DNA from: Minisyncoccota bacterium
GTDB taxonomy: Bacteria; Patescibacteriota; Minisyncoccia; Phycocordibacterales; PALSA-1337
Length of the DNA: 64,000 nt
Assembly (NCBI GenBank): GCA_041663145.1
Contig: JBAZRG010000001.1
Location: forward strand, 74,467 to 138,466
Direction: 5' to 3'
In this document: piece after piece, positions 3,327 through 63,363 of the stretch
Position numbering within the stretch: the stretch's first letter is position 1
Layout of the letters: each line of letters begins with the position of its first letter
Position numbers and translations under genes: made by a program
The notes under the pieces: model-generated
The model's database searches: none
The model's input: the letters and a program-made list of their open reading frames with translations, nothing else
Told to the model about the DNA's origin: nothing

Positions 3327-3786
3327 TTGACATATTATGTATATATGCTATAATAGCAAAGTACGAGGCTGTAGAGCCTCAATTTTGTTCCTTAAAACCA
3401 CATATGCTTGAGTAAAGCTTATTTCGCCTGTGGCGAGATTACATGTGTTTGAGGAAAACTGATAGGAAGAATATGAAAAATCGCAGGGTTACGTGGTATC
3501 ACTTTTGGGTCTTGTTGACAGTTGGCTTTCTGCTCATCATTGCGTCGAGACCATCGACGCCGATAATGACGCCGGAGCCGACGCCAGCTTCGCTTTCTCC
3601 CGAAGTGGGAGAAGTAAAGATGGTTGAGGAAGTTACAGTCCCTCAAGAAGGGATTGTGCCAACTTCGACAACGGAAACTCAAATTGTCAGCGTGATCTAT
3701 CACGCTGAACCGCAGATTCGGTGATTCAGTATTTGGTAAAATCAAACGCAGTAAAAACAAAAACAAACAAGAAAGGTAAAGGATAG

Positions 3787-4971
3787 ATGAAAATTAGAAA
3801 TCTGTTAGCGATTATTTCAGTCATTGCAATGTCGGTCTCCGGCCCAGTTGGTTACTCTCAATCGGTGCCAAGTGGCGGCGATGATACCAATGGTGGGAAT
3901 GAGCAGACCGGAAATCAGACCGGCGGTTCCGATGACTCCAGTGGTGGCTCCAATGGTGGGAATGGTCAGGTGGAGTGCCCTCCGGGGTTCATCTGCACGG
4001 ACACGGTACCTTCTGCCGTGCCATTGGCCTCTCCAGCGACACTGAAAGCCTATGCGCTGACACTTGTCAAACCAATCTCCGTACAGGTGTACGGGATGAG
4101 CGTTTCCGGCGACAATTATCGGTCGGTAGAATATACATCCGCAGACGCCGACCCTGCCAAAATGGCAGCGTTGGCTAGATCTCAACAATTGTCTTTCAAG
4201 GCAGCGGTTGGAGATCAGTTGTGGTCATATGTGAGTTACGACAGTCGGCCGATTCCTCTTATGGAGTCTAACGGCCAGTTGGTGAATTACACCTTCAACC
4301 TGTTCTCCGGTTCGAAAGCGTTCAAGCTCGAACCACAAAAGGGTGGTTGGGGCATTCCAGAGACCGCCTATAAGGTGGAACTCGACATGTCCTACGTCCC
4401 ATTCGTGGTGCCGGGCATGCAAGATGCTGTCATCGTAACGACCGATGAAAACGGGAATCAGACCGGTTGGTATAGTTTCCGCGAATCTTACGGAAACTAT
4501 GTTGACAGGGGTGTTCTCCTTTTAACCGAGGAGATGACTGGTCACAGAGGCCAGCTCATCATCACCATGAAGAATGGTGAGAAAATATCTTATAACCTCA
4601 AGAACGAACAACGGCAAGAGTCTGTCTCATTGCAGTTTACCGAAGTTCAGGCCACGATCAAGGGAGTGCGGTCGGTGCCGGCCACGGAAAATATTATGTA
4701 TGTGGCCGGTGATGAGATCATCCGCACTTCCGCAAAGGAAGATATGTGGTCATCGATCACGTTTCCTCCCGGACTCGATCGATACCCAGTCAAAGTCGCC
4801 GTCATTGAGACGGAGACACTGGGTCTCAACTGGAGCGCAGAATGGCTGGAGTTTAACCCTTATGTGGAGCCGGTCCGGTTCCTGATAAAGGCGAGTCAAC
4901 CTATTCTCATTCGCTTCGAGTATGAGACAGATCCAGAGCCACTGAACGGTGGCGGTATCGGAAAAAGCTAG
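3787..4971 (+). CDS. Secreted hypothetical protein with signal peptide and a Gly/Asn/Ser-rich low-complexity linker
   Basis: N-terminal 'MKIRNLLAIISVIAMSVSG' is signal-peptide-like, followed by a GGDDTNGGNEQTGNQTGGSDDSSGG linker. Confidence 0.5.
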   Translation: MKIRNLLAIISVIAMSVSGPVGYSQSVPSGGDDTNGGNEQTGNQTGGSDDSSGGSNGGNGQVECPPGFICTDTVPSAVPLASPATLKAYALTLVKPISVQVYGMSVSGDNYRSVEYTSADADPAKMAALARSQQLSFKAAVGDQLWSYVSYDSRPIPLMESNGQLVNYTFNLFSGSKAFKLEPQKGGWGIPETAYKVELDMSYVPFVVPGMQDAVIVTTDENGNQTGWYSFRESYGNYVDRGVLLLTEEMTGHRGQLIITMKNGEKISYNLKNEQRQESVSLQFTEVQATIKGVRSVPATENIMYVAGDEIIRTSAKEDMWSSITFPPGLDRYPVKVAVIETETLGLNWSAEWLEFNPYVEPVRFLIKASQPILIRFEYETDPEPLNGGGIGKS

Positions 4972-22865: not shown

Positions 22866-22936
22866 TGCGGGCTCGTCTAATGGTAGGACTCCTCCCTTTG
22901 AAGGAGGCTATTGGGGTTCGAATCCCTGGCCCGCAG
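22866..22936 (+). tRNA. tRNA-Gln (TTG)
   Basis: Acceptor TGCGGGC/GCCCGCA. Anticodon stem CCTCC/GGAGG with loop CTTTGAA. T-loop TTCGAAT. Confidence 0.75.
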
Positions 22937-23081
22937 CAAATAAATTACATAAAACAATAATATGAAAAATAAAACTCAAGTATTCATGATTCACGGAGGA
23001 ATGACTTTCAAAAACAAGAGAGATTATTTACATTTAGAATCAATAAATTAAATAATATGGCAACAATATCATATAATATCT

Positions 23082-23597
23082 ATGAGTAAAAAATATATAT
23101 GTGACGGAACAAAATATGAGATTGGTGGCCCGAAGGCTGATACAATAGGTTTACCAGTTTCTATTATGGGTCAACCTTTAAAGATAAGTGTAGAAGGCTA
23201 TGAATTACAGTTAAAATCATCATTCCACATTAGTCTCGTTTGTATCGGTAAGATGATTGAGAAGCATAAGATATCTATTCCTGATTTTGTAAATAAAGTC
23301 ATTGAAGACTTCTGTAGCTATGTTAGTACTACGGAAATAAATTTTTTGAAATATCGTAATGAATTTAGATTCGTCTCACAAAATGAAAGGCGAACCATTG
23401 TTGCAATGTGTGATATTTCTAATCTAAAAGAGTTTTTTGACTTGATTAACAAAAAGTATTCCTTGAAAGTTGAATATCAACCTACACATGTAACTATCTA
23501 TACCTTGCAACCAGAATTAGGCATCTTTCTATCTGACAGTAATGATTTACGGGAGCTTACAAAGGTAATTCCTAAGCCTGAAGGTGTGAATATATAG
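23082..23597 (+). CDS. Possible 2H-phosphoesterase (LigT-like) family protein
   Basis: Two H-x-S/T-x motifs ('FHISLV' and 'THVTIY') spaced about 90 aa apart. A 29-codon ORF upstream (about 22985-23075, 'MKNKTQVFMIHGGMTF...') looks like a gene fragment. Confidence 0.35.
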   Translation: MSKKYICDGTKYEIGGPKADTIGLPVSIMGQPLKISVEGYELQLKSSFHISLVCIGKMIEKHKISIPDFVNKVIEDFCSYVSTTEINFLKYRNEFRFVSQNERRTIVAMCDISNLKEFFDLINKKYSLKVEYQPTHVTIYTLQPELGIFLSDSNDLRELTKVIPKPEGVNI

Positions 23598-25138: not shown

Positions 25139-25804
25139 ATGCAAAATAAAATAGATAAAAATATCAAGAAAGTCGTCTATTTTATTAGACACGGACAAAG
25201 TGAACATAATATTGCGCCAGTTTTTCAGTCTCCAGATTCACCACTAAATGAACTTGGTAGGAAGCAGGCCTTGTCAATTGCAAAGCGAGTATCCAAGATA
25301 CCATTTGAAGCTCTGATTTCTAGTCCATTTGCGAGAACAAAAGAAACTGCTGATATTATTTCCAAAGCGACAGGTAAGGAATATGAACTTTCTGATTTGT
25401 TTGTCGAGCGTGTGAAGCCGACTATTGTAAATGGTAAACCCTATGAAGACAAGGAGGCAAATGAAATCTGGAAAGAATGGGAAAAGAGTCTTTACACCCG
25501 GGGTGTGCGCGTTGCTGACGGTGAAAATTTTGATGATCTAGTAACTCGTGCTGATAAGGCTCTTAAATTTCTTCAGGATAGACCGGAAAAATCTTTAGTA
25601 GTGGTAACGCACGGCTTTTTTCTGCGAACATTGATTGCTAGAATACTTATTGGTGACTTTTTATCCGGAGAAGCATTCTTCAGATTTCAAAAGAGTGCAT
25701 CCATGGAAAATACCGGCATAACGGTCATACGCTATCAATCAAGTTTCGAACAGACAGATAATTGGCGTCTATGGATCTATAACGACCACGCTCATCTAGG
25801 ATAA
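25139..25804 (+). CDS. Histidine phosphatase family protein (phosphoglycerate-mutase-like)
   Basis: The 'VYFIRHGQSEHN' RHG motif and a second His region 'VVVTHGFF'. Confidence 0.7.
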   Translation: MQNKIDKNIKKVVYFIRHGQSEHNIAPVFQSPDSPLNELGRKQALSIAKRVSKIPFEALISSPFARTKETADIISKATGKEYELSDLFVERVKPTIVNGKPYEDKEANEIWKEWEKSLYTRGVRVADGENFDDLVTRADKALKFLQDRPEKSLVVVTHGFFLRTLIARILIGDFLSGEAFFRFQKSASMENTGITVIRYQSSFEQTDNWRLWIYNDHAHLG

Positions 25805-25977
25805 AGTATCAATAACGGCTTAAATCCCTTCGGATAACATCCCCACGACCAGCAGTCAACATAGTATTGGGAGTCCGGGGAGTTAATTTTACTTGTAATT
25901 TTCTGCGGTTATGATAGTGTATAGATACAAACGGCTTCGGCCCGACTCTACCGCAAGGTAGAGGTAACAAGAAGGAT

Positions 25978-26172
25978 TCAGGGTAGCAATGCCTTGAATT
26001 TTTTATAAATGATAACAGGACGGAGATAGTCTTCACCTCCGCCATCTTGCTCAAATCCAACATTCACTCCAAGAGTACACCACCAAATTTCTCCTTCATG
26101 GAAAAAGGGGCGCTTTTCGATCTGGTCAATTACGAATTTCTTATCATGCCACTTTTGAAAGTCTTTTTTCAT
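25978..26172 (-). pseudogene. Truncated paralogue of the MazF/PemK-like toxin at 28447..29082
   Basis: The 64-aa product 'KDFQKWHDKK...EGEIWWCTLGVNVGFEQDGGGEDYLRPVIIY' aligns to residues about 85-150 of the 211-aa copy and then terminates. It shares the upstream 'ATTTCCAAATAAAT..AATTTTGTTA' promoter-like block and the downstream hairpin block. Confidence 0.6.
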
Positions 26173-26443
26173 TGATTTATATTATACTTGTAATTACCAT
26201 GTCTTAACAATCCTGAATCAGTTGAGGTCAGAAATGCTCATTTACATTTCCAAATAAATTTAATTTTGTTAAAATACTGAAAGTTCTTGTAAATAGAAGG
26301 GGGTGAGGGGGAGGACTCCCCAATAAAGGTTGGCGCTGAGGAGGTCCGTAAATGCGCCGTAAACCCTTGTCCCCTTATGTTTATAAGATTTTGAACAGAG
26401 TCTGATCATTTGCCATTAATTGTTGATTTGAGTTAGTATTCAC

Positions 26444-26860
26444 GTGAATACCATAAATAGCACTACTATGAAATCCGTAACAATATGTTCAAGCAATAAG
26501 TTTGCAAAAGAAGCACTGGCCTTTGCTGAAGAATTAAAGAAGCTTGGCGTTACCGTCCTTGCTCCACATTATTATGCTTATAATTACGGGGATGTGGACA
26601 AGGTTGAGGGTCACAATAAGAAATTCATAGCTATGGGGCTCACGCATGATCATTTCAATAAAATCAAGAAAGGGGATGTCATATTCATCTTCAATAAGGA
26701 CGGCTATAGTGGCAACAGTGTCACACTTGAACTTGGCTATGCAACGGCTTTGGGGAAAATTATTTATGCTCTTTCTGATAAGGATCCTGAGACATGCAGA
26801 GATATATTATTTACCGGGTATGCAGATACACCGGAGAAGCTAGCTAAATTACTCAAATGA
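26444..26860 (+). CDS. Nucleoside 2-deoxyribosyltransferase-like (NDT/Rcl fold) protein
   Basis: C-terminal 'SVTLELGYATALGKIIYAL' contains the catalytic-Glu motif of the NDT family. The likely start is Met 'MKSVTIC'. Confidence 0.55.
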   Translation: MNTINSTTMKSVTICSSNKFAKEALAFAEELKKLGVTVLAPHYYAYNYGDVDKVEGHNKKFIAMGLTHDHFNKIKKGDVIFIFNKDGYSGNSVTLELGYATALGKIIYALSDKDPETCRDILFTGYADTPEKLAKLLK

Positions 26861-27306
26861 AATCAAAAGTAAAAATTTACGTACTTGGAAGTAGTCATTT
26901 CCAAGAAGAAATGGTTAAGTGTTCTGAACAATTGCGTACCTTGGGGCACGGTGGATGGATCCATCCAGATTATGAGGCCTTTGTGCGAGGTGAGAAACAA
27001 GACATTGTTAGTCGTTGGTTAAGTGGTGAACATGCCGCAGTTAAACGAGAGAATAATTATCTAAAGGAACATTACGAGCATATCTTGGAAAGTGATGCGA
27101 TCCTCATAGTAAATGCCGAAAAGAATGGCGTTAAAAACTATATCGGTGGAAATGTGCTAATTGAAATGGGACAAGCTTTTGTCAATAACAAGAAAATCTT
27201 CTTCCTCTATGGTATGCCTACAAAGTCTGCATATCTAGATGAAATTGAGTGTATGGATCCTATTTGTCTAAACGGAAAATTGGCGGATATTAAGAAGTAT
27301 TTATAG
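26857..27306 (+). CDS. Nucleoside 2-deoxyribosyltransferase-like protein, second paralogue
   Basis: 'KIYVLGSS' N-terminus and 'GGNVLIEMGQAFVNNKKIFFL' Glu motif. Overlaps the upstream gene by ATGA. Confidence 0.55.
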   Translation: MKSKVKIYVLGSSHFQEEMVKCSEQLRTLGHGGWIHPDYEAFVRGEKQDIVSRWLSGEHAAVKRENNYLKEHYEHILESDAILIVNAEKNGVKNYIGGNVLIEMGQAFVNNKKIFFLYGMPTKSAYLDEIECMDPICLNGKLADIKKYL

Positions 27307-27309
27307 ATA

Positions 27310-28050
27310 ATGGCTTAACAAAGCCAGATTTAGCATATCCTATTGGACAAAGTGTCAAAATGCTTGACAAATGCTGTGGGTATGCTATACTTGTCGTGTC
27401 AGGATAAGGTATTGGATACAATCTTGATGTGCTTAGTAGGCACTTTCTTCAGTACATTGTAAGTCAAGTCAGTTTCGAGGGCGCGAAGCATTTCTTCTTC
27501 GCCCTCGTCTTTGCGGTTTGGCGCTTCGGGGGTTCGTCCCACGTGCTACCGGCCGCATGTAAAAGGGCAGTTCTGGCTATAGCCTCTCTATCAGAAAGAG
27601 CCAGATAAGTGAAATTGGGTTGCAGGTATTTGTGAGAAACAAATACCACGCATGCGTTTCACTTAAGGAGATTCATTTCTCTTACCTCCATGCTTTGGCA
27701 CAAAAAGTGGAGGCGGACAACAGTTAGAATGTGTCTTGCTCGATACCCCTGAAAGAGAAAATCTGAAAGCAATATTTCAGGAAGGGGATTGAGGACAGAA
27801 TCATCTCGCGAGGATTCTATGTGGGGGTAGTAAGTGGCAAGTCGCCCACCTTCATGACCCGTCAAGCTTTCATGCGAACAAGGTTTGCCGCATGAGCCAC
27901 CCAGCATCATCTGGTGTTGGTTACAAAAGAATTTCCGAGTGGAAGTTCTGCAAACCATTAGTTACCTGCCCCTGAGCTGCGCCACATTTTGGCGATGGCT
28001 CGGGGGTTTTCTTTTTATACTAATCATAGTGGTGGAATGAAAGCTGTACA
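27310..28050. other. About 740 bp non-coding, GC-enriched, hairpin-rich region (candidate structured RNA or decayed foreign DNA)
   Basis: No ORF longer than 99 aa in any frame. GC is roughly 50% against about 38% in flanking genes. There are strong hairpins, for example CGAGGGCGCGAAG...CTTCGCCCTCG at 27477-27510, and a GGGGGTTTTCTTTTT terminator-like run at 28003-28017. Confidence 0.4.
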
Positions 28051-28055
28051 AAAAA

Positions 28056-28355
28056 GTGTTAAATTTAGTGTTACATAGGAACGAGATAATACGCCCAATG
28101 ATATATTACACTTACATTCTCAGATGTGCCGATGATTCTCTGTATGTTGGGTGTACGAACGATCTTGAAAAACGTCTTTTTCAACATAACAATTCTAAGC
28201 GAGGCGCGCACTACACGAAGATCAGAAGACCTGTAATATTGGTATACCACGAGAAATTCGTCACTCTGAGGAAAGCTCGAGGAAGGGAAGCAGAGCTCAA
28301 AAGTTGGAGAAGAGAACAAAAATTGGCGTTGGTGGGTACTAAGAAAAAGGCATAA
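28056..28355 (+). CDS. GIY-YIG nuclease superfamily protein (YhbQ/UPF0213-like, about 90-100 aa)
   Basis: 'YYTYILRCADDSLYVGCTNDLEKRLFQHN...GAHYT' GIY-YIG core. The start is probably the Met at about 28098. Confidence 0.65.
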   Translation: MLNLVLHRNEIIRPMIYYTYILRCADDSLYVGCTNDLEKRLFQHNNSKRGAHYTKIRRPVILVYHEKFVTLRKARGREAELKSWRREQKLALVGTKKKA

Positions 28356-28446
28356 CGAAATTGCTTTTTATTCATTAATTTGCTATTGTATGGACACAAG
28401 TGGCTTCGGCCTCACCTCCGAAAGGAGGAGAACAGGTGGAAAAATG

Positions 28447-29082
28447 TCAGAATAAATTTCTGGCATTTTTTCTTAATTCCTCAAATTTTTCTTTATCAAG
28501 AAAGCCTATTTTTTCGACATGACGTCGAGTATCGATTGATCGTATTTGAGAAAGAAGAGCTGACGCATGCTTTGTGTCGACTAGTCCAACAGGTATACGT
28601 AGATGATGTTTGTTGGGAGATGATGTTAGGGGGATAACCATGCATATTCTTGGTCCAAATTCTCGAATGATTACACATGGACGTAGAAATTCTTCACCAC
28701 TTCCGTCTTGTTCAAAACCAATATTGACTCCTAATCTACACCACCATATCTCTCTTGTTGTATATAGACGCTTCTCTTCAAGTTCTGCTTTTTTCTTTTT
28801 TGAATTCCATTTATCAAAATCTTTAGAATCAAGGTCTTTGTCAATCAAAGAAAATCTTATCCCATATTCTACTTCATATTCCAGATCTTTAATATGATTT
28901 TCAGCTTTATCTATTGCCAATCTTATAAAGTTAAAATCGCCGAGATGTTGTATATCCAAATCACTTTCATAATCTTTCTCAGAAACCCTAAATTTATCTA
29001 AGGAAATTTCTTCGATTTTTATATAATTGTTTGCACTCATAATAATTTGGGATAATTTTATTCTTAATTTTAGAAATAGCAA
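28447..29082 (-). CDS. MazF/PemK-family toxin fused to an acidic N-terminal extension of about 100 aa
   Basis: C-terminal 'REIWWCRLGVNIGFEQDGSGEEFLRPCVIIREFG...ICMVIPLTSS...HLRIPVG' matches the MazF/Kid pattern. The N-terminal 100 aa are D/E-rich. No separate antitoxin ORF is adjacent. Confidence 0.65.
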   Translation of the reverse strand: MLFLKLRIKLSQIIMSANNYIKIEEISLDKFRVSEKDYESDLDIQHLGDFNFIRLAIDKAENHIKDLEYEVEYGIRFSLIDKDLDSKDFDKWNSKKKKAELEEKRLYTTREIWWCRLGVNIGFEQDGSGEEFLRPCVIIREFGPRICMVIPLTSSPNKHHLRIPVGLVDTKHASALLSQIRSIDTRRHVEKIGFLDKEKFEELRKNARNLF

Positions 29083-29120
29083 GACAGACTTATATTTACC
29101 ATTTCCAAATAAATATAATT

Positions 29121-29438
29121 TTGTTAGAATACAAAATCATGACAAAAAACCCTTACCTCAACGCACTCATTGCTTCGCTTTACATCGTCTTTGTCGTACT
29201 CCTTATAACTTACGGTCCCATGTTTGTCAGAGAAAAACCGGATACAATTCTCGCTCCTATGGCGATGCTTAGCTTATTAGTTCTATCGGTTGCTTTTATG
29301 GGTTACACTTTCATCTTTCGACCGGCACTCATGTATATGGATGGACAAAAAAGTGAGGCGATAGGGCTTTTCACTAGGACATTACTTACGTTTTCTATTA
29401 TAACCGCTGTGATAGTTATTGTTGCCTTTTCCGTCTAG
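29121..29438 (+). CDS. Small membrane protein (3 predicted TM helices)
   Basis: Hydrophobic segments 'LIASLYIVFVVLLITY', 'LAPMAMLSLLVLSVAFMGY' and 'LTFSIITAVIVIVAF'. Confidence 0.45.
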   Translation: MLEYKIMTKNPYLNALIASLYIVFVVLLITYGPMFVREKPDTILAPMAMLSLLVLSVAFMGYTFIFRPALMYMDGQKSEAIGLFTRTLLTFSIITAVIVIVAFSV

Positions 29439-62743: not shown

Positions 62744-63208
62744 TTAAATTATATTCAATTCCTTGAACCATTCATACATCACCACTTCTAAACCTGGTGA
62801 TTTTTGCCACTCATCTTCGGAGATTTTTCCTTTTAAATATTCTTCTGTTTTTTCAGCCAGAGCTTTGATTTGTTTTTGGTCATACCATCCTGCTTGTTTT
62901 GTCTCATCTTGGCTTCTATTTAATTCACCAGTTGTCTGAATCTCGTATATCTTCCAGAGGTGCCATGAGCCATCTTCTCTCCTGCATTTATTTTCTTTTC
63001 TGCCTTCTATTATCAATTTCAAATTTTTCGCATCCAGACCAACCTCTTCATTGAGTTCACGTATGGCGGCATCTTCAAAACTAGAATCACCGTCAACATG
63101 ACCTGCTGGAATAGCGAATCCATACGGTTCTCTTCCTCGTTCAATGAGAAGAATCTTATCACCATTTTTAACTATCATTCCAACGCTTTTATGATCACAG
63201 ATTTTCGT
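62744..63208 (-). CDS. NUDIX hydrolase
   Basis: Nudix box 'GHVDGDSSFEDAAIRELNEEVGL'. The start is moved to Met 'MTKICDHK'; the track ORF extends to 63325. Confidence 0.7.
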   Translation of the reverse strand, partial: TKICDHKSVGMIVKNGDKILLIERGREPYGFAIPAGHVDGDSSFEDAAIRELNEEVGLDAKNLKLIIEGRKENKCRREDGSWHLWKIYEIQTTGELNRSQDETKQAGWYDQKQIKALAEKTEEYLKGKISEDEWQKSPGLEVVMYEWFKELNII

Positions 63209-63363
63209 CATGTTTATATTGTATTTAAGTCTGACTCGTTCGTTTGAATGATAACTAAAGAAATTTGTTTTCGCAATAAAATTTGCTCTTTGAATTTTTG
63301 TAAAAAAGAAAATGGTGAGAATCATACTGAATTCTCACCACAGTGAACTTATGTTGACGCGAT

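Follow-up and report, generated by a model that had tools for sequence, protein, structure and literature searches.

Toxin modules in the window

The locus described here lies in a 64-kb stretch of DNA from a Minisyncoccota bacterium (assembly GCA_041663145.1, contig JBAZRG010000001.1, positions 74,467 to 138,466 of the forward strand), which we call the window and number from its first letter. It carries two copies of a module made of a MazF/PemK-type toxin gene and a small RNA (sRNA) gene of about 79 nucleotides (nt), which lies on the opposite strand and overlaps the 3' end of the toxin gene. Judged from the genes collected here, the sRNA family is widespread in bacteria of the candidate phyla radiation (CPR) and strictly coupled to a MazF subfamily that has no protein antitoxin. 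A covariance model of the sRNA, R1, was built. The features of the two modules, one intact and one decayed, are the following (aa, amino acids; ORF, open reading frame):

28447-29040, minus strand: intact toxin gene (copy 2), 197 aa, Pfam PF02452 PemK/MazF at E 2.2e-13
29055-29082, minus strand: own promoter of toxin 2, TTGCTA-16-TAAAAT, 14 nt before the ATG, no Shine-Dalgarno motif
28396-28474, plus strand: sRNA copy 2, 79 nt, R1 score 90.4 bits, E 1.7e-15
28361-28389, plus strand: promoter of sRNA copy 2 as read from the sequence, TTGCTT-17-TATTGT, ending 6 nt before the ACA start
25978-26172, minus strand: remnant of toxin copy 1, a 64-aa ORF with an in-frame internal deletion
25927-26006, plus strand: sRNA copy 1, R1 score 36.3 bits, E 3.8e-5, of a different subtype, GGCCCGACUCUACC-GCAA-GGUAGAGG

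An earlier note on this DNA had reported three repeated blocks in the region, and all were present when blastn was run against the window. Block (a) (26240-26277 and 29094-29132) was identical at 36 of 39 positions (E 3.7e-9), block (b), within toxin coding sequence (26008-26093 and 28666-28754), at 76-78% (E 2e-12), and block (c), the 3' block (25912-25942 and 28381-28411), at 81% (E 0.04). The two members of block (c) are copies of one structured RNA, with the R1 scores listed above. The description of copy 1 as a 64-aa ORF was confirmed, and the notion of two paralogous toxin modules, one of them decayed, was supported.

Toxin homologues were sampled as 80 loci from GTDB species representatives, drawn from at least 588 matches, and nine further toxin contigs were added through exact-protein look-up, giving 89 loci. 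The records of 79 of the 80 loci were labelled as CPR/Patescibacteria lineages or as unclassified metagenome-assembled genomes; the lineages were Paceibacteria, Kaiser-, Taylor-, Lloyd-, Nomura-, Yanofsky-, Zambryski-, Vogel- and Adlerbacteria. The labels L001 to L148 designate the retrieved homologous or related loci.

A MazF-fold toxin without a protein partner

In addition to the Pfam match, toxin 2 matched the PDB profile of Bacillus subtilis EndoA/MazF (E 1e-6), with the RP(V) Arg and (I/L)T Thr motifs aligned and conserved, and its predicted model (predicted local distance difference test score of 74) matched MazF-mt1 in Foldseek (E 1e-5, probability 1.00). The MazF domain is preceded by a KDFDxWN helix that is specific to this subfamily. 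Two forms were found: a short form of 127 aa, which starts with M-x-KDFDxWN, and a long form of 197 aa, represented by window copy 2, with an added N-terminal beta3-alpha domain (residues 1-51 in toxin 2). We identify the protein as a predicted MazF/PemK-fold endoribonuclease of a distinct subfamily, a distant homologue of MazF/EndoA.

Toxin 2 is annotated by NCBI as a 'type II ... PemK/MazF family toxin'. The module indeed resembles the type II systems MazEF and PemIK in the MazF/PemK fold and in the aligned Arg (RPV) and Thr motifs; however, it has no MazE/PemI-like or other conserved protein partner, and its mRNA is apparently leaderless and monocistronic. No conserved gene was found upstream: across 76 loci, the ORFs that precede the toxin on its strand form no common family and include GAPDH, LexA-like, uracil-DNA glycosylase, surface-protein and other unrelated or housekeeping genes, and an upstream protein antitoxin was rejected on this ground. 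In the window, a divergent promoter and a membrane ORF lie upstream of toxin 2. When the N-terminal domain of the long form was searched with Foldseek for an antitoxin fold, every match fell on the MazF domain. The partner that defines type II is absent from the module.

The toxin genes have their own promoters close to the start codon. Of 69 toxin starts, 50 have a -10 box whose end lies 3-16 nt upstream of the ATG (mode 6-7), compared with 20% of control ATGs, and only 4 show a motif like Shine-Dalgarno. The promoter of toxin 2 is kept in L001, L003, L004, and L084. The toxin mRNA thus appears to be leaderless or near-leaderless.

A convergent sRNA family at the toxin 3' end

The sRNA of copy 2 opens with the 5' tail ACAAGU. 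Two hairpins come next, GGC-UUCG-GCC and then CCUCC-GAAA-GGAGG, and after an A-rich linker the RNA closes with a terminator hairpin and its U-run; the last part of the sRNA (28447-28474) overlaps the stop and the last codons of toxin 2. The minimum free energy (MFE) of folding gave a z-score of -5.1 on the plus strand and -3.0 on the minus strand. For copy 1, which has the promoter-like sequence TTGTAA-16-TAGTGT at 25893-25920, the corresponding values were -5.5 and -1.3. As the block folds better on the plus than on the minus strand, it is a gene convergent with the toxin and not a 3' untranslated region (UTR) of it; the earlier note had called it a 3' RNA element of the toxin module. The GNRA-capped hairpin differs between the two window copies by compensatory changes.

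The arrangement was found in all 80 GTDB loci. On the opposite strand past the toxin stop, each has a promoter of the form TTGACx-17-TAtaaT and then a start ACA(A/G)(G/U)UGGCUUCGGCC, followed further 3' by the GNRA hairpin, the A-rich linker, and a terminator stem that covers the toxin stop codon. R1 matched at the toxin 3' end on the opposite strand in 80/80 of these loci and in 9/9 of the further toxin contigs, and additional R1 matches adjoin additional toxin paralogues. As a negative control, R1 was run on about 170 kb in 51 CPR loci picked for an unrelated gene (homologues of NDT2, described below), with 0 matches. Within the window, R1 returned the two plausible matches listed above and one weak reverse-strand match to a terminator.

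The structure is supported by covariation. In the R1-fitted alignment, 97.3% of the cells pair, and compensatory changes occur in 19 of 22 pairs; none of 500 shuffles reached the observed level, and slid controls paired at 42-65%. An alignment made independently of R1 with MAFFT and RNAalifold recovered both hairpin 1 and the terminator; 14 of its 17 pairs showed compensatory changes. The promoter is equally regular: a TANNNT -10 box stands at -12..-7 in 79/79 sRNA copies, and a TTGnnn -35 box in 69/79.

Searches against Rfam 15 brought only tRNAs to the gathering score across the window, and nothing meaningful was returned at E <= 10 over 25700-29300; a known Rfam family, a tRNA, and a tmRNA were ruled out as identities of the sRNA. 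No copy was found in IMG/VR viral contigs.

A tRNA-linked island was considered and rejected, since among 58 loci tRNA-Gln adjoins the sRNA in no more than three. In these, the sRNA gene is immediately preceded by a tRNA-Gln(CTG) gene of the same orientation (L003 5718-5789, L004 5863-5934, and L039 5579-5652); the tRNA-Gln(TTG) of the window and sRNA copy 1 are separated by 3 kb. Separately, L055 (NZ_CP182469.1, 673315-683689, 'Bradyrhizobium sp. DASA03120 chromosome') carries two CPR-type modules of toxin and sRNA, with R1 scores of 100 and 56 bits. The record is labelled as a complete Bradyrhizobium chromosome, and the G+C of the locus, 0.536, is low for Bradyrhizobium. This suggests horizontal transfer or contamination.

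A decayed module with a surviving sRNA

The remnant of toxin 1 joins the first 59 residues (to ...RPVIIYKKF) directly to the last five (KALLP*). The deletion of about 65 codons removed the conserved Thr region and the C-terminal half but spared the stop codon and the terminator of the sRNA. In a tblastn comparison, the remnant aligned to toxin 2 residues 73-141 with 48.6% identity. Its 59 N-terminal residues resemble another subfamily, namely the second paralogue of L078 and P0052, and the L078 paralogue ends in ...INKIKALLP*, the same ending as in copy 1. The sRNA subtype of copy 1, GGCCCGACUCUxxCGCAAGxxAGAGG with compensatory changes, also occurs in L008 and L078. Copy 1 (25927-26172) is, on these comparisons, an older module of another toxin subfamily and not a recent duplicate.

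The same subtype was found beside damaged or missing toxins elsewhere. In L078 (1750-2200), an intact sRNA lies beside a frameshifted toxin, and in L008 (4836-4917), an orphan sRNA with its promoter has neither a toxin nor a remnant. In this sample of three, the sRNAs of copy 1, L078, and L008 look like orphan antitoxin RNAs that have outlived their toxins.

Relation to Campylobacter pVir and to type I systems

Outside the CPR, tblastn found toxin homologues on plasmids of Campylobacterota only and, among phages, mainly in Campylobacter prophages. The PemK-like protein of plasmid pVir of Campylobacter jejuni 81-176 (CJJ81176_pVir0047, L138:1480-1884) is 33% identical over 103 aa (BLASTP, E 3e-19), FDxWN included, and its gene, like those of the CPR, is annotated without an adjacent protein antitoxin. 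A 77-nt sRNA, CJpv3, has been detected by Northern blot on the minus strand of pVir (31119->31043) in the orientation ><> between pVir0047 and pVir0048 (PMC3656092 Table S12, Dugar et al. 2013). These coordinates make CJpv3 convergent with the PemK-like gene, ending about 5 nt from its stop. In the sequence, a TATAAT box stands 6 nt upstream of the CJpv3 start, and three hairpins follow. PMC10470494 and PMC7826846, both citing Shen et al. 2016, describe pVir of 81-176 as the carrier of a type I system with the antisense sRNA CjrA as antitoxin.

The CPR sRNA (79 nt) and CJpv3 (77 nt) are alike in being convergent at the toxin 3' end, in having their own promoter, and in their three hairpins. 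They differ in where they end, CJpv3 stopping just short of the coding sequence and the CPR sRNA having its terminator inside it; moreover, the Campylobacter genes are on plasmids and prophages, whereas the CPR modules are chromosomal and occur in hundreds of species. R1 gave weak matches at the expected place and strand on pVir (9.2 bits) and in Nitratiruptor (L136, 9.7 bits), with E of about 0.8-0.9. Next to the plasmid homologues of Helicobacter (L137 1870-1990, minus strand) and Nitratiruptor (L136 1850-1960, minus strand), a hairpin-rich stretch is convergent with the toxin 3' end, with z-scores of -3.2 and -1.0, respectively.

In B. subtilis, the genes of the type I pairs txpA/RatA, bsrG/SR4, and bsrE/SR5 face each other, their terminator hairpins forming the 3' overlap, and the antitoxin is transcribed from its own promoter; the toxins are hydrophobic peptides of less than 60 aa, and the overlaps measure 75-120 nt. 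The CPR module shares with them the convergent genes, the 3' overlap through a terminator hairpin, and the sRNA's own promoter, and it differs in its MazF-fold toxin of 127-197 aa, its overlap of about 30-40 nt, and the conserved 5' domain of the sRNA that lies outside the overlap. When the genes alone are read, the architecture is that of type I: a convergent sRNA gene, a conserved promoter, and a terminator over the toxin stop and last codons. In place of the small hydrophobic peptide usual in type I, the toxin is a soluble MazF-fold protein; nuclease exceptions among type I toxins are SymE and RalR.

Mode of action

We consider it moderately probable that the module is an RNA-antitoxin MazF system of a type I-like kind, which acts through complementary 3' hairpins. 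The toxin gene's own promoter would yield an mRNA with little or no leader. From a conserved sigma-70-type promoter of its own, the sRNA of about 79 nt would be transcribed toward the toxin gene and end in an intrinsic terminator that works in both directions, its stem-loop covering the last toxin codons and the stop. As the terminator is shared, the two RNAs would have perfectly complementary 3' hairpins. The sRNA would then pair with the 3' end of the toxin mRNA, with a first loop-loop contact as in the Bacillus type I systems, and the pairing would trigger cleavage or decay, so that toxin synthesis stays low. If the sRNA were lost or its synthesis stopped, the RNase would build up and growth would be arrested. 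In the window, copy 2 (28396-29040) would be an intact system of this kind, and the sRNA and promoter of copy 1 would survive as an orphan antitoxin.

Several points weigh against this reading. The sRNA shares only a short stretch with the toxin coding sequence (28 nt in copy 2), and convergent genes often share bidirectional terminators without regulatory meaning. At R1 scores of about 9 bits for pVir and Nitratiruptor, homology of the sRNA to Campylobacter is not demonstrable, and it is only by inference that we equate CjrA with CJpv3 and its toxin with the PemK-like protein of pVir. The reading assigns no role to the extra N-terminal domain predicted in the long-form toxin. Transcription in this organism, toxicity, and antisense action are predictions from the DNA. 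Finally, the most conserved part of the sRNA is its 5' 35 nt, outside the toxin coding overlap (1.51 versus 1.22 bits per position). Pure cis-antisense action leaves this conservation unaccounted for, which keeps a protein-binding or a hybrid mechanism alive.

In the protein-binding case, the sRNA would be an antitoxin that acts on the toxin itself, in a type III-like manner or as a decoy: its 5' domain, with the ACA tail and the UUCG and GNRA hairpins, would serve as a pseudo-substrate in the groove of the MazF-like dimer, and the 3' overlap would be incidental or secondary. The near invariance of the alignment columns in this domain speaks for such a role, as do the sRNA subtypes, which track the toxin subfamilies, and the leaderless toxin mRNA, which would present no 5' UTR as a target. 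MazF-fold proteins bind single-stranded RNA (PDB 4mdx, among the structure matches, is an example), and the ToxN toxins of type III share the Kid/MazF fold. Like ToxIN, CptIN, and TenpIN, the module links an RNase toxin of related fold to a small structured RNA. The defining type III architecture, in which tandem direct repeats precede the toxin and a terminator stands between them and the toxin gene, was, however, tested for and is absent: there is a single convergent sRNA downstream, and no upstream tandem repeat array on the same strand was found. The stable UUCG and GNRA hairpins could simply guard the sRNA against decay, and the nearest studied relative, that of pVir, is reported as type I. 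We regard action on the protein as unlikely, if well worth keeping in view.

A further alternative is that the module is not a toxin-antitoxin system at all. The protein would then be a non-toxic dedicated RNase or RNA-binding protein, with the sRNA as its substrate, its cofactor, or a co-regulated riboregulator, or the sRNA would be unrelated and merely share a bidirectional terminator. The family is very widespread in reduced CPR genomes (the 588 or more matches) and often stands beside housekeeping genes, it matched no defence model, and L008 and window copy 1 retain an sRNA but no toxin. On the other side, copy number and position vary among relatives and the module is missing in a syntenic one, decayed toxin copies occur, homologues lie on Campylobacterota plasmids and prophages with a reported type I system on pVir, and the sRNA is always beside a toxin gene or remnant, with one orphan excepted. 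We judge this alternative to be quite improbable.

The two RNA-based mechanisms might also be combined. In such a dual-mode sRNA, pairing with the leaderless toxin mRNA would fall to the 3' hairpin, and the near-invariant 5' domain would neutralise the toxin protein by binding it or would serve as its decoy substrate, which would make a type I/III hybrid class, widespread in Patescibacteria; this proposal would go together with two undescribed structured RNAs in the same 3.3 kb, RNA-X and an orphan RNA of about 620 nt, both treated below. We put it forward as a speculative and, on balance, unlikely combination. If it were true, type I/III hybrids would be systematically mis-annotated as 'type II'.

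Few small RNAs have been described for CPR bacteria. We found in the searchable literature neither a prior description of an sRNA-MazF pairing nor CPR small RNAs linked to toxin-antitoxin systems. The family would be a large and strongly structured one missing from Rfam, with at least 588 toxin loci among the GTDB species representatives. If the type I-like reading holds, it would explain the very common "orphan" MazF/PemK toxins without a protein antitoxin in reduced genomes, extend RNA-antitoxin control to a MazF-fold RNase over a broad phylogenetic range, and tie it to a scarcely studied Campylobacter plasmid system. As an annotation rule, the MazF subfamily with KDFDxWN would not be called type II. 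R1 is directly usable for genome annotation, and the conserved 5' domain of the sRNA offers a handle to tell antisense action from protein binding.

The D2 repeats, RNA-X, and the duplication reading

Block (a) of the repeats, here called D2, belongs to a second set of features around the modules:

26201-26244, plus strand: 42-nt conserved block between toxin 1 and D2a, also upstream of long-form toxins in relatives
26240-26277, plus strand: repeat block D2a, promoter TTTCCA-17-TAAAAT with an upstream TG, facing away from the toxin
26282-26395, plus strand: RNA-X, a candidate structured RNA or leader of about 115 nt behind D2a, MFE z-score -2.9
29094-29132, plus strand: repeat block D2b, outward-facing promoter TTTCCA-17-TAGAAT
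29139-29438, plus strand: membrane ORF, 99 aa, ATG 9 nt after the D2b -10 box

The earlier note had taken D2 for the toxin promoter. D2 reads on the plus strand and faces away from the toxins, which have their own promoters near the ATG, and within the first 80 loci no match to it was found at <=7 mismatches; a role as toxin promoter or operator was rejected. D2 reappears only together with RNA-X, in L084, L139, and L143, where D2 and RNA-X are 90-92% identical to the window and the toxin genes only 79-84%. RNA-X lies there on the minus strand (L084 4438-4548, L139 2633-2740, and L143 288-400); its core is invariant in the three relatives and always divergent from a long-form toxin, and the genes that follow it differ from locus to locus. 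Rfam at E <= 10 returned nothing meaningful over 26270-26445. RNA-X could be an sRNA or a promiscuous leader. Behind D2b, the -10 box is so close to the ATG of the membrane ORF, for which no family match was found, that the mRNA would be leaderless.

The 42-nt block was matched by blastn at 84-93% in L001, L003, and L081-83, and at 81% in L140 over 26194-26245 (positions L001 ~4900-4942, L003 ~3612-3656, L081/L082 9902-9943, and L140 2784-2835). In L143, a stretch is similar to it by eye, and in L140 and L143 the common sequence extends past the block.

A reading based on the earlier note is that a recent duplication of a unit of promoter, toxin, and 3' RNA built a compositionally foreign, defence-type islet. 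Three collinear repeat blocks, the accessory nature of the module (see below), and D2 repeats that flank the segment 2855 bp apart are in its favour. The two toxins, however, are only about 49% identical as proteins, and their sRNAs are of different subtypes, which contradicts a recent origin; D2 faces away and belongs to another RNA. The composition is not distinct either, as the G+C of the segment is 0.413 compared with 0.414 for the window, and its tetranucleotide distance, at the 92.6th percentile, is mildly atypical. No PADLOC defence model matched: PADLOC-DB v2 gave no match for the toxin, the nucleoside deoxyribosyltransferase (NDT)-like pair, the GIY-YIG gene, the membrane ORF, or a 171-aa ORF, and the toxin had no NCBIfam match either. 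This version is largely refuted, and we hold it to be very improbable. The D2 copies themselves form direct repeats that flank RNA-X, the NDT-like pair, the large non-coding RNA (ncRNA) candidate, the GIY-YIG gene, sRNA 2, and toxin 2; they may be a recombination scar.

Intervening segment and accessory context

Three further features lie between the two modules:

26444-27306, plus strand: pair of nucleoside-deoxyribosyltransferase-like genes, NDT1 and NDT2, 138 and 149 aa
27364-28016, plus strand: large ncRNA candidate with a promoter TTGACA-16-TATACT at 27364-27391, a transcript of ~27398-28016 (~620 nt), and a strong terminator
28098-28355, plus strand: GIY-YIG nuclease-family gene, 85 aa from the ATG at 28098, Pfam E 2.9e-16

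Homologues of the GIY-YIG gene number more than 2,585. The earlier note had proposed a comparison of synteny from a histidine phosphatase to VanY; only the GIY-YIG-to-VanY part was located in a relative (L145-148). There, GIY-YIG is 73% and VanY 62% identical, with the orientation and spacing of the window, and the slot of the module holds unrelated ORFs of 85 aa and 175 aa, neither toxin nor sRNA. The GIY-YIG gene is, thus, a conserved VanY neighbour in the syntenic relative and lies outside the module. As the module is missing from this relative, it is accessory, as the earlier note had held, and homologous loci have unrelated neighbours. In L082 (10001-20594), whose toxin is 80% identical to that of the window, the module adjoins a block with a phage-type integrase, a serine recombinase, an OLD-TOPRIM nuclease, and an N6/N4 methylase.

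The NDT-like pair consists of distant paralogues (27% identity, E 2e-6), and the match of NDT1 to Pfam PF05014 (E 4.8e-5) falls short of the curated threshold. The sRNA was absent from all 51 NDT2-homologue loci searched with R1, and the pair is cargo outside the module. In relatives (L087-L091 and L108), the NDT2 homologue directly follows a NUDIX gene, and coding genes come next; in the window, NDT2 (26857-27306) and the NUDIX homologue (62744-63325) are 36 kb apart. This separation indicates a local rearrangement.

The large non-coding region matched nothing in the following searches, and three identities considered for it were dropped: that of a previously described RNA, that of a pseudogene, and that of a stretch conserved beside NDT2 or GIY-YIG. 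Rfam at E <= 10 over 27380-28025 returned nothing meaningful, the ORFs of the region had no Pfam match, blastn and nhmmer found no match in 149 loci, phages gave no match, and tblastn found no similarity to 2,386 ORFs of related loci. Its promoter is the best in the region (11/12 plus TG), its MFE z-score is -3.8, and its G+C is 0.477; both strands fold well, so folding alone has no say on the strand. We regard it as a candidate orphan RNA of about 620 nt.

Outside this segment, the 171-aa ORF mentioned above (23082-23597, plus strand), which has no Pfam or PADLOC match, lies just past tRNA-Gln (22866-22937) and has the lowest G+C nearby, 0.32.

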